Notes: a model not told the origin generated them from the sequence alone. 64,000 nucleotides of DNA from an uncultured Gemmatimonadaceae bacterium (GCA_963761305.1 CAVXGK010000002.1:1344001-1408000), one strand, 5' to 3'. Shown: positions 22,864-62,172, counted from the stretch's first letter. Program-made: numbers and translations.

Positions 22864-23098
22864 GATGTCAGGGTGCTCAGCGGCAAATGCCGTACCCAAC
22901 TGTTAGGGCGCGCGGCCCGTGCGCCAAAGCCGGCGCCGACATGGGTGCGGCGCCGAGGCGAGAATCGGCGAAAAAAACTACGGAGCGCGCCAGGCTTCGG
23001 CTAGCGCCGGTGCGGAGACCTGGAACGAGTGCGGGGGCGGTGTGCGGAGACCGGGAACGAGTGCGGTGGCGGGGTGCGGAGAACTGGTCCGCGCGACG

Positions 23099-36772: not shown

Positions 36773-37333
36773 CTAGACCGATTCGACGGTATTTGGGATT
36801 TCCGTTTGAGTCTCGCCAACCTGCAAGCGATGCGGCCGAGCCGACCATGCGGGCGGGTCGTGTCGCTTGGAACTCGGCCGCGGCCTGCGGCTCCCCTTCT
36901 CTGGCGGCGGCGTAATCCCGTACTCGCGCAGCACGGTGCGGAACACGCGGTGCGCGCGATTGATGTGCTTGCCGACCATTTTGGCCGAGATACCCAGGGC
37001 CTGAGCCGCCTCGGCGTACGATTTCCCGTCTTCCCGCACCGCGAGGAACGCCAGCCGGCACTGGGGCGGCAGCGACGCCAGCGTGTTGGTGTACAGCGCT
37101 TCGTATTCGCGTTCCAGCCACTGGGCCTCCGGGTCCATCCACGTGCGCGAGTACCCCTCGAGCTCGCGCAGGTATTCGGCGTCGCGCGCCGCGCGCCGTT
37201 TGTCGCGCCGGTGTTGATCGATCATGCGTCGCCTGACCAGCATCCGGACACGCCGCTCGAGTTCCGACTCTTTCTCTTTTTCGCCTTCTCCCTGCTCTCC
37301 GTCGTCTCTGGTGCCCTCGTCCCGCCGTGCCAT
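36773..37333 (-). CDS. Sigma-70 region 4 protein (N-terminally reduced ECF-like sigma factor)
   Basis: LASLPPQCRLAFLAVREDGKSYAEAAQALGISAKMVGKHINRA helix-turn-helix; GAGGAGG Shine-Dalgarno; only a remnant of region 2 (VRRRMIDQHRR). Confidence 0.7.
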   Translation of the reverse strand: MARRDEGTRDDGEQGEGEKEKESELERRVRMLVRRRMIDQHRRDKRRAARDAEYLRELEGYSRTWMDPEAQWLEREYEALYTNTLASLPPQCRLAFLAVREDGKSYAEAAQALGISAKMVGKHINRAHRVFRTVLREYGITPPPEKGSRRPRPSSKRHDPPAWSARPHRLQVGETQTEIPNTVESV

Positions 37334-37371
37334 CGATACAGCCTCCTCGAATGAAATGAGTGAATCGGCAT

Positions 37372-37660
37372 GGGTGGCCGCGGCCAGCGGATTCTGGCGA
37401 CGTCGACCCCCCTATAGATGAATCGCCACGACTCGCGATTTGATACCGCAACAAAACGTTGCAGTGGGCGAAAACGCCCGTCCGCGCGCCCAAAGTGTCA
37501 TGCGTGCGTCAGCCGCCTGTCAGCACGCGCCTCGCGCCGGCCCATTCGCGACCCAAACCGTCGCCAAATGAGGACAATTGGTATCAAATCGCTACCCGTG
37601 GCGATGTATAAGTAGGGGGACGACGCAGCCAAGTTCTTCCCCGCCGGTGCGCGGCCGCCA
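37372..37660. promoter_or_regulatory. Inverted pair of promoter-like elements (about 37372-37447 and 37580-37660)
   Basis: Both read outward as GGTATCAAATCGC-N4-CGTGGCGAT-N7-TAGGGGG-N1/2-CGACG. Confidence 0.6.
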
Positions 37661-37813
37661 CGTCGCGCGCGATTTCGGGGGTGGCCCAACACGCATCGGG
37701 CGCGCCGGGCGTTCAATCACGAGCAGCTCGGTGGAATCTCGTCGCGTCGCGCATCTCAACCGCGCCGCCCGATGTCACGGCGCCAGAAACACGAATCACA
37801 CGATCGTCAGCGG

Positions 37814-37939
37814 AGATTCACTCCGCTCCGGCCAAGATTCACCGCGCCGCATCTGAGACTCACCGCGCCACATCTGAGATTCACCGCGCCAGATCTGAAA
37901 TTCACCGCGCCACATCTGAGATTTACCGTGCCGCGTCGA
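37814..37939 (+). repeat. 21-bp tandem array A (6 imperfect units, AGATTCACCGCGCCACATCTG)
   Basis: Units start at 37814, 37835, 37856, 37877, 37898, 37919. Confidence 0.9.
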
Positions 37940-37995
37940 GACGTCACCGCACACGGTTCGACGACCACCTGACGGCAGGCCGCAGCAAGGCTGCC

Positions 37996-38066
37996 TCGGA
38001 ACGGGTCCCGCCACGTTCGGAACGGGTCCCGGCACGTTCGGAACGGGTCCCGGCACGTTCGGAACG
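37996..38066 (+). repeat. 21-bp tandem array B (3 units plus partial, TCGGAACGGGTCCCGGCACGT)
   Basis: Units start at 37996, 38017, 38038, partial at 38059. Confidence 0.9.
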
Positions 38067-38124
38067 CGTGCAAAATGCTCCGACCGACGCTCGCATGGCT
38101 CACGAACGCATCGAGTTGCGACGC

Positions 38125-38229
38125 GACGACCGATCGCGTGCTCCCGACGACCGATCGTGTGTTCCGGACGACCCGTTGCGCGCTCCGGACGGCCGATCGC
38201 CCGCTCTGGACGACCGGTAGCGCGCTCTG
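38125..38229 (+). repeat. 21-bp tandem array C (5 degenerate units, about GACGACCGATCGCGCGCTCCG)
   Basis: Units start at 38125, 38146, 38167, 38188, 38209. Confidence 0.8.
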
Positions 38230-38418
38230 ACCGACCGTCACCCGCGCGATCCGCGCGGCGAGCCGCGTCCAGAAGGGCCGGCATCGCCTACAGACATCCT
38301 CATCAGGACTCCAGACCTCATCGAGTCCTCAACAGCGTTCGGCGCAACAGCACGCGCCGACGTCGCGCCCGACACATCCCGTGTCACGGGCGCTCCACCC
38401 TCCCTCAAGGAGAACGCA

Positions 38419-39207
38419 GTGAAAGCTTTCCACGCAGCAACCTTGAACACGCTGACCCGAGTGCAGCGGTTCCTGGATCTCAACGGCTCGTCACTCGGAG
38501 ACATCAACGCGTCGGGCTATCGCAAGATCCTCGACGACGTCGTCGACAAGCTGGGCGTCCACGCCGCTGACCAGACGACGACAAAGCGGACGGCCGCCGC
38601 CGAGGCGGCCAAGGAGCGCGTGCTGCGAAACGCGCTCAAGCTGAATCACATGCGGCCCATCGCCACGGTCGCCAGCGCACAGCTCCGCCAGGTGCCCGAC
38701 TTCGCGGCCCTCAAGATGCCGCCCAAGAACGCGACGTCGCGCACTCTCATCACGTACGCGGCGGCGATGAAAACGGCCGCCGGCGAGTACGCCGACGCGT
38801 TCGTCGGCGCGGGCTTGCCGGCGGACTTCCTCGATGAGTTGCAGGGCGCGGCGGATGCGTTGAGCAACTCGTTGACGAGCCGCACCTCGAACGGCGCCGC
38901 GCAGCGCGGTGCGACCGTCGGTCTCGATGCCGAGGCGACGCGCGGACGTCAGGCGGTCAAGGTGCTCGACTCGCTGGTCGAGCCGCTCATTCAGGGCAAC
39001 CTCGCGTTGCTCGCCCAGTGGACGGCGGCGAAACGGTTCGGAGGCAAAGCGAGTGCGCCGACGAGCACGTCGATCGATGCCGCGGCGAAAGGTCCGACGA
39101 TTCCGCTCCCGACAACGGCCGAGTCGTCGACTCCACCGCAGCCGTCGTCTTCGCAGCCGGTGCCCGCGCCGGCTGCGTCAGTCCAGGCTCCAAGCCCGGC
39201 GGCGTAG
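38419..39207 (+). CDS. Hypothetical all-helical protein with a Pro/Ser/Ala-rich tail
   Basis: AAGGAG Shine-Dalgarno before GTG; strong GC3 bias; LTRVQRFLD, HMRPIATVA, GLPADFL motifs. Confidence 0.8.
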   Translation: MKAFHAATLNTLTRVQRFLDLNGSSLGDINASGYRKILDDVVDKLGVHAADQTTTKRTAAAEAAKERVLRNALKLNHMRPIATVASAQLRQVPDFAALKMPPKNATSRTLITYAAAMKTAAGEYADAFVGAGLPADFLDELQGAADALSNSLTSRTSNGAAQRGATVGLDAEATRGRQAVKVLDSLVEPLIQGNLALLAQWTAAKRFGGKASAPTSTSIDAAAKGPTIPLPTTAESSTPPQPSSSQPVPAPAASVQAPSPAA

Positions 39208-39226
39208 GCGCGGCGCAGTTAGGTCC

Positions 39227-39262
39227 GATTGGTCGGCCGCGATTCGTCGCGGCCGACCAATC
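39227..39262 (+). terminator. Perfect 16-bp hairpin with TTCG loop after the 38419 gene
   Basis: GATTGGTCGGCCGCGA-TTCG-TCGCGGCCGACCAATC, 20 nt after the stop; only a weak U tract follows. Confidence 0.7.
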
Positions 39263-59828: not shown

Positions 59829-61802
59829 TCACGGCGCTCGAGAGCTCTCGCCCGGATCGAATTCACGGGCCTCGATCACCGACGGATACCCACCGTTGGC
59901 GCCCAGACGAACCGATAGCAACACGTTGTACCGCCCCGGGAATCGCTGAGCGGCAAGGGTGTCTCGGTCGCCGAGGTCCCGAACGACGACGACGTCGGAT
60001 GGAAAGTCGAAGACGTCGTACCCGAACAGCGGCGCCATCGCCGGTTCGCCCCACCAGCGAAGGGAAATCGTGTCGCCAGGCGGTTGGGGAAGCGTGGAGC
60101 GAACGAAGACGAGGAGCTTCTGGTGATCGACGCGCAACCGCTCGACGACGGTTTGCGACGCGGTCAACCGAGTGTAGTCCCGTCGACGTGACCGGATGTC
60201 GGAGGCGGCGTCGACGATCATCGTTGTCGCGAGCAGGCCCGCCAATACCGCGCCCGCGGTTCGGTGTCTGCGCGCCAGGCCGTGCAGGAGATACGCCGAG
60301 CCGACCAACGCAAAGGGAAGAATCTCGACGTAGAATCGATCGCTACCGCTGCTGTGATAGAAATAGAAGCCGTACGCGAGGGGCAGCACGACGAACGCGC
60401 CCAGGGGGCGCCAGCGCCAGCGCACGCCGGCGCGCCAGGCGGCGTAGGCAATCGGGACGATGAGGATGGTTGCTGAAAAGAAATCCGTCAGCCCGGCACG
60501 CACGGTCTCTCGAAGGTTCTTGACGGCGACCAGCGGGCCGAATTGGTACGCGTGTTCCACGGGAACGCCCATCGCCGCGTATTCGACGAAGCCCCGCATA
60601 CCGAAGCCCAGAGCGTGAAGCCCATGCTCGGCCACGTCATACCCGAAGCGCAAGGCGGATCCGGTTGTTTCGAGGTTGTAGTACAAGACGAAGACGACCG
60701 GGGCCACGGCCCCCGCGCACGCGGCGAGCGTCGTGGCGGTCGCCGCGCGGAGGGTCGGCCGCTCGCGCAGCAGCACCCAGAACCACAGCGTCGCGGCCAG
60801 CGCCAATCCGGTGAGCGGGCGAACGGCGACCGCGAAACCCAGCGTCAGCCCCGCGAGGGCCCACGCCCACGTGCGACGGCCGGGTGATGCCCCGACCCGG
60901 CCGACCATGAGGCTCGCGGCGATGAGCCCGAGCGCGGCCTCGAAAACGTGAGTGAAGAAGGTCGTCGAAAAGTCCAGGATGGGAGCGCTGGCCGTGACGA
61001 GCACCGCGGCCAGGAGGCCCACACGCGCCCCCGCGACGACTCGGCCAAACACGTAGGTCGTCCCGACCAGCAGCCCATACACGGCGAAGAGGAGAAGCCA
61101 GCTCGCCGACAGGCTCGACGCGATTGACAGCAATAACGGCCACCCCGGCGGATATTGGCCGTTGAAGTAGCCTGGCACATAGTAGGATTGGTTGATCAGA
61201 AAGAATGGGGCCAGGTCGCCTTCGAGCGGCCGCATGAAGGGCGGGTGCAGGACGTACCGGGACTGAATCAGGTACAGCACCTCGTCCAGAATGATCGGAT
61301 GGTGGCCAGGCGGACGGGCAACGACCCAGGCCGCCGTCGCCAGCACCAGCCACGACGCCGTGAGCCATTTGGCAACGACTCCGGGCGCCGACGACGGCTG
61401 GGGATCCCATCGCAGGACCGCGAGCGGCACGCTCCATCCCGCGAGCAGCAGAATCGCCACCTTGCTCACGTCGTATAGCGAAGGACCGCTCAAAGCGAGG
61501 ACAACGCAAACCGGTATTCCGAAGAAGGCCGCCAGCTGAAATCGCTCTCGTGGGCCGGACGCTCGCCAAGTGGGGAGCGCCAGGTAGGCGTCGATGCCTG
61601 CCGCGATGAAGAGGACCCACCTGACTCGAAGCACATCGAGGTGAAGCAGCGGGACGACGGCGAACTGCGCGATCGCCAAGAGGGCGACAGCCGCGTAGCT
61701 GCGCTTGTTGGGCAACCCCACGCTCGGACTCGACTTGAAAGGCGACGGCCAAACGTATGAGTCGGGGTTTGCGATCGGCAGGGTCAACTCGGGTTCGTGC
61801 AT
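59829..61802 (-). CDS. GT-C fold membrane glycosyltransferase (ArnT/PMT-like, family 39/83)
   Basis: LDEVLYLIQ, QYPPGWPLLL, many TM helices, AVRPLT, YYNL.TTG, RFYVE. Confidence 0.75.
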   Translation of the reverse strand: MHEPELTLPIANPDSYVWPSPFKSSPSVGLPNKRSYAAVALLAIAQFAVVPLLHLDVLRVRWVLFIAAGIDAYLALPTWRASGPRERFQLAAFFGIPVCVVLALSGPSLYDVSKVAILLLAGWSVPLAVLRWDPQPSSAPGVVAKWLTASWLVLATAAWVVARPPGHHPIILDEVLYLIQSRYVLHPPFMRPLEGDLAPFFLINQSYYVPGYFNGQYPPGWPLLLSIASSLSASWLLLFAVYGLLVGTTYVFGRVVAGARVGLLAAVLVTASAPILDFSTTFFTHVFEAALGLIAASLMVGRVGASPGRRTWAWALAGLTLGFAVAVRPLTGLALAATLWFWVLLRERPTLRAATATTLAACAGAVAPVVFVLYYNLETTGSALRFGYDVAEHGLHALGFGMRGFVEYAAMGVPVEHAYQFGPLVAVKNLRETVRAGLTDFFSATILIVPIAYAAWRAGVRWRWRPLGAFVVLPLAYGFYFYHSSGSDRFYVEILPFALVGSAYLLHGLARRHRTAGAVLAGLLATTMIVDAASDIRSRRRDYTRLTASQTVVERLRVDHQKLLVFVRSTLPQPPGDTISLRWWGEPAMAPLFGYDVFDFPSDVVVVRDLGDRDTLAAQRFPGRYNVLLSVRLGANGGYPSVIEAREFDPGESSRAP

Positions 61803-61836
61803 GTGCAGGTATACGACGGTCCGCCCCATACATGGG

Positions 61837-62172
61837 CACATTCGACTTCGGCACGAGCACCTGAGACTCCGGCGGCGTCACTTGGCACTCTCGTGGGGAC
61901 ACTTCACGCCGGCGCTTGGCCCTCTGCCGCGCAAGCCGGGGCACCTCGCAATGAGCTCGCGGCACTTCGCAATGAGCTCGCGACACTTCGCAATGAGCTC
62001 GCGACACTTCGCAATGAGCTCGCGACACTTCGCAATGAGCTCGCGACACTTCGCAATGAGCTCGCGACACTTCGCAATGAGCTCGCGACACTTCGCGATG
62101 AGTTCGCGACACTTCGCGATGAGTTCGCGACACTCCGCGGTGAACGCGGGACACGCAGCAGTGAGCTTCGCA
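61837..62172. repeat. 21-bp-period array; core of 9 near-identical units (61942-62130, CACTTCGCAATGAGCTCGCGA) with degenerate flanking units
   Basis: Core units start at 61942, 61963, 61984, 62005, 62026, 62047, 62068, 62089, 62110; CAC recurs in phase at 61837, 61858, 61879, 61900, 62131, 62152. Confidence 0.92.

Follow-up and report, generated by a model that had tools for sequence, protein, structure and literature searches.

The locus at 36773-39262 carries a conserved and undescribed unit, in which a continuous non-coding lattice of 21-bp units accompanies the gene of a basic helical protein. No description of a lattice paired with a protein of such a predicted rod shape was found in the literature searched, which consisted largely of papers available without subscription. 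The window analysed here, a stretch of 64,000 nucleotides from an uncultured Gemmatimonadaceae bacterium, belongs to a genome of 5.2 Mb in two contigs (G000). The module lies between amidohydrolase and CopD genes, and its features are listed in Table 1. An earlier note on this DNA had described the sigma region-4 protein on the minus strand and the 262-aa ORF on the plus strand, each with its Shine-Dalgarno (SD) sequence, the inverted duplicated element and the perfect TTCG hairpin at the end of the unit. All of these were found again; the mirrored arms are 40 bp each, inverted and 80% complementary. The three end hairpins between 38305 and 38393 had not been listed.

Table 1. Features of the module and of the protein-less copy in the same window.
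Feature	Position	Strand	Remark
Truncated ECF-type sigma gene, 186 aa	36773-37333	-	Pfam Sigma70_r4_2, E 7e-12
SD sequence of the sigma gene	37342-37348		
Left arm of the mirrored promoter-like element, pointing at the sigma gene	37408-37447	-	putative promoter, from position and orientation
Right arm of the mirrored element (GGTA..AAAT, ~18 nt, TAAGTAG), pointing at the lattice and the helical gene	37580-37619	+	
Non-coding 21-bp lattice, ~33 units, holding all three visible arrays	37640-38335	.	
Visible period-21 arrays	37835-37932, 37996-38066, 38124-38228		
Three conserved hairpins closing the leader	38305-38329, 38339-38360, 38365-38393	+	91% of cells paired in 13 sequences
SD sequence of the 262-aa ORF	38407-38412		
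Basic helical protein gene, 262 aa	38419-39207	+	
Perfect 16-bp stem with TTCG loop, 3' of the helical gene	39227-39262	+	
Protein-less (solo) sister-type head and lattice	61790-62148	+	83% identity over 365 bp to the leader of the paralogue at G000 C2:2527638

The 21-bp periodicity of the locus is not a product of chance. The z value at lag 21 was 11.7, whereas a z value above 4 was reached by only 4 of 600 random 600-bp windows of the genome, which served as the background of this signal. Three unrelated 21-bp arrays had been reported earlier. The arrays are present and their consensus units are indeed dissimilar, with 4-8 of the 21 bases matching in register, but they turned out to be patches of a single register. 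A 21-column cyclic profile, trained on 27 other loci with the present locus left out, gave the same best phase for six of the seven consecutive segments between 37640 and 38335, apparent gaps included; for array 3, the common phase of the lattice ranks second best by the profile. We therefore concluded that the arrays form one continuous lattice of about 33 units. At other loci, adjacent 105-base blocks share their phase in 64 of 100 cases (4.8 by chance), a figure to which common descent contributes. Between the right arm and the second end hairpin lie 598 to 932 bases, depending on the copy; modulo 21, this spacing is 8-12 in 12 of 15 copies. The present locus, with 3 modulo 21, is an exception, and one further copy is mis-anchored.

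A universal consensus of the unit, derived over 57 loci, has a low information content. Unit spacings were 21 bp in 61 cases, 22 bp in five and 20 bp in one, so that off-size units are mostly of 22 and not of 20 bp. In the genome, TRF gave 68 rows at period 21, 8 at period 20 and 2 at period 22, with many unrelated units, and two 43-bp arrays exist. The predominance of 22 over 20 among the off-size units and the 43-bp arrays would be expected for a helix of 10.5 bp per turn and not for codons. A 10.5-bp sub-signal, which would indicate bending, was looked for in the lattices and not found, and the same was true of sub-periods of 7 and 3 nt. A weak 5.25-base T/purine signal reached 1.45 times the background and exceeded it in 34 of 53 loci; the unit has a modest dyad (r 0.46). 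Folding of the lattice was no better than that of shuffled sequences, with a mean z of +0.07 for the sense and -0.36 for the antisense strand in 18 loci. The sense strand is poor in G (skew -0.113, negative in 17 of 18 loci) compared with 66 control regions (+0.008). Arrays with a period of 43/86 and not 21 are found at G000 C2:1588908-1589146 and C1:1445565-1445979; the former precedes a family member of normal length (251 aa), that is, the period is doubled without a doubled protein.

The lattice is non-coding. Over 57 leaders (L034 included), the period-3 power was 1.26, compared with 2.86 in the helical gene, and match rates at multiples of 3 were at the baseline. In 14 pairwise alignments of leaders, one-base gaps made up 37 of the 97 alignment gaps, 19 of 44 long gaps were exact multiples of 21, and no reading frame was open throughout across relatives. 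Some of the one-base shifts are possibly long-read errors; several are common to different assemblies. Since 21 bp correspond to seven codons, the lattice could be read as the code for a variable heptad (coiled-coil) peptide, one of the options put forward before. An open frame of 179 codons (37681-38220) crosses all three arrays, and the array at 61942 is readable as a heptad repeat in one frame. The missing triplet periodicity, the common one-base shifts, some of them in more than one assembly, the failure of relatives to keep a frame, and the occurrence of 22- and 43-bp units nevertheless make such a peptide highly improbable, and we rejected it.

The lattice is linked to the helical gene in relatives as well. 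Upstream of the gene, a z value above 4 at lag 21, 42 or 43 was found at 47 of 59 loci and at none of 59 coding controls; the 59 loci are those left after the removal of five duplicates, an unpublished locus and seven loci with short upstream DNA. At 53 of them the top upstream lag was 21, 42, 43 or 63. Among further loci of the same genus 13 of 20 passed, or 11 of 18 new ones after two that repeat earlier loci are set aside; the loci are kin, and neither 47/59 nor 11/18 represents independent trials. At 12 of the 59 and 7 of the 18 loci the lattice is weak or absent, the genes being mostly intact-looking. The earlier note had expected homologues to have both an upstream 21-bp periodicity and a neighbouring sigma gene. 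The periodicity was borne out, but only 15 of 54 loci had a sigma gene in divergent orientation at a distance of up to about 1.3-1.5 kb, and none had one on the same strand. In a further set of 20 loci, the sigma gene was divergent in six and on the same strand in one. The sigma gene is thus an optional part of the module.

The position of the lattice relative to the promoter differs between two families of the protein. In the sister family, a GG-N10-GC motif, which we take from its consensus to be a sigma-54-type promoter, lies at -91 to -140 in 17 of 18 loci (0.06 expected per locus), where the pattern was written after the motifs had been seen and several start codons were picked by eye; the 18 loci are the usable ones of 24, three with uncertain starts, two short ones and one unpublished having been left out. 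An own-family locus included in this comparison had no such motif. The motif is located at or behind the end of the lattice, i.e., between lattice and gene. In the family of the present protein, the same pattern gave four scattered hits in 26 loci. There the mirrored element is followed by the lattice, and this in turn by the ribosome-binding site (RBS); lattices end 1-100 bases ahead of the start codon. Judged from this position, the lattice of the present clade is probably transcribed. Since the position relative to the promoter differs between the families, the constant partner of the lattice appears to be the protein and not the transcript. Since the transcript would include the lattice in one family but not in the other, while the gene beside it is always the same, the lattice would act most simply as DNA. 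At sister loci L026, L030, L031, L035 and L037, the 5' UTR from the sigma-54 motif to the RBS is conserved and appears to be structured.

The AlphaFold2 model of the 262-aa protein (mean pLDDT 87) has helices at residues 33-88 and 137-190 and a disordered tail. In the model, the core of about 210 aa forms a long bundle in which two helices are about 55 residues long, and the tail is a low-complexity Pro/Ala/Ser/Thr sequence; no hydrophobic segment was found in the protein. The net charge of the core is positive in all 72 homologues, and 20 core positions are basic in more than 70% of them. The dN/dS of 0.06-0.14 against five relatives indicates purifying selection. From the basic core, the conserved charge and the purifying selection, we infer that the protein binds nucleic acid. 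The modelled long helices measure about 81-84 Å, which matches the 71 Å of 21 bp loosely. An internal duplication is weakly supported (probability 13.5%).

The protein had no match in Pfam or NCBIfam, and Pfam scans of 72 and 27 members yielded no common family. Foldseek found nothing at E<=0.001 in the PDB and viral structures, VIA-align gave generic helical bundles only (best Z 9.9), and a PDB sequence search gave E values of at least 0.59. A language-model neighbour at 0.87, in which 32% of the members have DUF6261, is a lead only; the DUF6261 (PF19775) profile matched neither the genome nor any of 27 diverse members.

Of region 2, the local sigma protein retains the last helix and lacks regions 2.1-2.3; region 4 is present. 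It matches TIGR02985 from position 53 of 162 (E 2e-15, C-terminal two thirds) with 57 bits against the curated cut-off of 126 bits, whereas a full-length paralogue, at G000 C2:~1.101 Mb beside another copy of the module, matches from position 9. For TIGR02937 the local protein scored 38.6 bits, below the cut-off of 42.9, and the paralogue passed with 50 bits. Sigma70_r2 was matched by the paralogue only. A complete ECF sigma factor with regions 2 and 4 was therefore rejected. The local protein resembles ECF sigma factors (TIGR02985/FecI-like) in region 4 and over the C-terminal two thirds, but differs from them in the lost regions and in the absence of an adjacent fecR-like anti-sigma gene. 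The truncated form was found again in related loci, and its dN/dS over residues 54-140 is 0.23-0.33. Because most of region 2 is lost, the local sigma probably cannot start transcription alone. Together with the small share of loci that have a sigma gene, this speaks against the control by a dedicated sigma factor proposed before.

No sigma-70 consensus promoter was found at the locus. A TAAGTAG-type motif, derived from the module itself, has 21 sites in the genome, of which 11 lie ahead of a lattice, seven in outward mirror arms and two ahead of weaker lattices, and one is unrelated. The position and orientation of the arms suggest that they act as promoters. It is barely tenable that they are instead the recombination sites of an invertible switch. 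They are 40-bp inverted arms about 90-130 bp apart, and two arms from the same copy resemble each other more than arms from different copies do (0.78 vs 0.68), as a switch would have it; yet the interior is oriented alike in every copy that was aligned or printed, a copy's own left arm ranks as the best match in just three of eight cases, and no recombinase gene was noticed among the flanking ORFs read by eye.

In the end hairpins, 16 G-U cells stand against about seven A-C cells, and one change on both sides was seen, at the inner pair of hairpin 3. The pair-type counts, as a measure of covariation, were not above the shuffle control (377/500). A T-run follows the last end hairpin in five relatives (L001, L002, L003, L005 and L009), which makes it terminator-like there; the present locus has none. 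Searches with the Rfam covariance models yielded hits only at the level of chance, two in number (E 2.4 and 3.8) and both outside the leader. The terminal hairpin at 39227-39262 has no U-tract and was for this reason not picked up by the terminator scan. Its sequence is unique in the genome, and paralogues finish in other hairpins.

The module is not unique to the locus but is a dispersed multi-copy unit of Gemmatimonadota, shared by many related bacteria of soil. Homologues of the helical protein numbered 110 by single-sequence search and 861 among 8,000 scored candidates by profile; one hit, of 555 aa, is a candidate for a longer or fused form. The protein is present in 35 of 151 genomes sampled from Gemmatimonadota, a tally that includes the unpublished genome G057. 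In the genus of the host it occurs in 19 of 31 genomes; the number of matches per genome ranges from 0 to 22, and many matches are fragments. Outside Gemmatimonadota, language-model neighbours are the only pointers (Acidobacteriota 0.97, Bacteroidota 0.94). The host genome holds 18 loci of the helical gene, 13 intact and five broken, scattered over both large contigs, and about 60 lattice-like segments. The mirrored head of the present clade has nine copies, three with the gene and six without it. Strong lattices (z at lag 21 of 6.1-9.6) lie beside all five broken genes, which are at G000 C1:853k, C2:1.501M, 2.348M, 2.819M and 680k. Most solo copies stop near hairpin 3; their left ends vary from -133 to -251, and both arms are kept. 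The solo lattice of the window (61942-62138) comprises 9.4 units, and the copy stands directly before an SNF2-like helicase ORF (62298 onward), one of three such solos in the genome.

In the same pairs of copies, the synonymous distance of the sigma gene exceeds that of the helical gene (e.g., 1.24 vs 0.31), and high identity between copies begins at the end hairpins. These facts suggest that parts of the module are exchanged as a mosaic. The CopD genes of 11 relatives have no module upstream, but their neighbours differ, and therefore neither an insertion site nor a target duplication could be defined. An insertion sequence or a prophage was rejected, as the left ends of solo copies vary and no homologue of the helical protein was found in viral contigs, phages or PHROGs. 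In L001 and L009, about 125 bp resembling the head of another subfamily are inserted immediately behind the right arm, which gives these loci a chimeric leader.

Tentatively, and at somewhat less than an even chance, we take the lattice for a landing strip of double-stranded DNA, coated cooperatively by the basic, probably rod-shaped protein encoded beside it, with autoregulation. The predicted rod would cover one unit per two turns of the helix, and the period would be set by the protein's repeat on B-DNA, leaving the sequence free to drift, while units would be gained and lost by slippage. In the present clade the coat would span the transcribed leader and hold back RNA polymerase that started at the right arm. 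Assisted by the block of hairpins and terminator before the RBS, the protein would thereby limit its own synthesis; if the lattice acts as DNA, the hairpins would then be a separate control at the RNA level. Transcription from this promoter may depend on the full-length ECF paralogue acting in trans, with the local region-4-only sigma at most competing for -35 sites. Copies without the protein would be extra binding sites. For the cell, the coat might serve nucleoid organisation, or it might serve only the persistence of the unit. In its favour are the single non-coding register, the linkage to the gene in both families despite the differing promoter position, folding no better than that of shuffles, the sizes of the off-size units, the conserved basic protein, and the lattices that are still strong beside all five broken genes. 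The absent 10.5-bp sub-signal, the modest dyad, the loose match of helix length and the loci with a weak or absent lattice count against a DNA coat.

Of the options that the earlier note had offered, the DNA scaffold is favoured over the repetitive RNA by the sister lattices that precede a sigma-54-type promoter. That the lattice works as RNA is possible, though on the unlikely side. It would then be an unstructured, G-poor leader of about 800 nt, coated by the protein at 21 nt per unit and steering termination or translation at the end hairpins, and the solo copies would be decoy or scaffold RNAs. The G depletion of the sense strand and the excess of G-U over A-C fit such a role, as do the location of the lattice between a promoter-like arm and the RBS, the well-paired hairpins with their single both-sides change, the T-run in five relatives, and solo copies that have variable left ends and mostly finish near hairpin 3. 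However, 17 of the 18 sister lattices would be outside the transcript, the 7-nt and 3-nt sub-periods are absent, and covariation stays within the shuffle control; furthermore, both arms are retained in solo copies, whereas a transcript that starts at the right arm would not include them.

On another, unlikely view, an enhancer-binding or nucleoid protein of the host reads the lattice, or the lattice is no more than a satellite kept passively by slippage; the helical protein would then serve a different purpose and be just the cargo under regulation. Enhancer sites lie upstream of sigma-54 promoters, which is where the sister lattices are found. Lattices also persist without the gene, in the six solo copies of the present clade and in the segments across the genome, and slippage alone would account for the gaps in multiples of 21. 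Slippage does not explain, however, why unrelated units all have the length of 21 in the TRF rows; the lattice stays with the gene through a change of promoter type, and the conservation and basic charge of the protein are at odds with mere cargo. We prefer the DNA coat as a working explanation. A further reading, which we regard as improbable, is that of a new selfish element without a transposase. The rod protein would polymerise on any lattice phased at 21 bp; by pairing or exposing lattices, the filament would let units and protein-less cores be copied and rearranged across the chromosome. If true, this would explain the 0-22 matches per genome in one genus and the mosaic of sigma gene, lattice and helical gene, and bacterial 21-bp satellites would be the footprints of the element.

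Several known systems combine repeats with a protein. In parC-ParR, tubC-TubR and Rep iterons, phased repeats (iterons often about 21-22 bp apart) are bound cooperatively by a protein encoded nearby and double as its operator. The present unit likewise has phased repeats beside a protein gene, but the modelled protein is made of long helices throughout, without an HTH, RHH or winged-helix fold. A centromere or iteron array was rejected, since the unit sequence drifts within one locus and no motor or Rep gene is linked to it. Attenuators of the TRAP-trp type have repeats in the leader. The lattice resembles them in preceding a terminator-like hairpin, and differs in having no short conserved word at a fixed spacing, in lying outside the transcript in the sister family and in having no Rfam match. 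CRISPR-like or guide arrays were rejected as well: the units are head-to-tail without spacers, and PADLOC gave no match below E 0.01.

The closest working model, in so far as its description was available to us, is KfrA of plasmid RA3, an alpha-helical protein that binds a repeated site ahead of its own gene and represses its own promoter, recognising five conserved 9-nt repeats over that promoter on the plasmid (PMC7783346). Both are alpha-helical proteins encoded behind repeated DNA; here, in contrast, about 33 degenerate 21-bp units are found, on the chromosome and in many copies. A protein of KfrA type in a plasmid location was rejected, because the protein has no Pfam or NCBIfam match, tblastn found nothing in 72,556 plasmids, and the copies are on both large contigs. 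Bacterial tandem repeats of 20-21 nt with constant size, variable sequence and several families per genome, mostly non-coding, have been described by Subirana and Messeguer (2021, PMC8161180). The part of that paper available to us relates the repeat length to two turns of DNA and suggests a protein whose polymerisation on DNA depends on repeats of constant size, and names no partner gene or protein. The lattice has the length, the variable sequence and the non-coding nature of these repeats, and differs from them in its association with a single protein family, with a promoter and with end hairpins.

Repeats of fixed length (21 bp) and free sequence have been described from many bacterial genomes and lack an explanation, and the helical protein family would offer a first testable candidate for a partner. 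A protein that reads the period of DNA and not a conserved word would, if real, have an unusual mode of recognition and might provide a programmable DNA ruler or scaffold. The shift of the lattice from a place upstream of a sigma-54 promoter to the inside of an ECF-type leader offers a natural experiment that separates roles as DNA from roles as RNA.

Some minor observations concern related loci and other repeats. In L007 and L008, the last 50 bases before the start codon contain short 7-bp tandem repeats and no clear SD sequence. Genome G177 (L101-L108) has 22 family matches, with lattices of up to about 1 kb that end 38-101 bases before the start. A 32-bp repeat of 2.5 copies is present in the window at 23009-23087, and the genome has 15 arrays of period 32. 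Of the 157 period-8 tandem arrays in the genome, 115 derive from two related units (rotations of ACCGGTCC and ACCCGTCC), often beside copies of the module.
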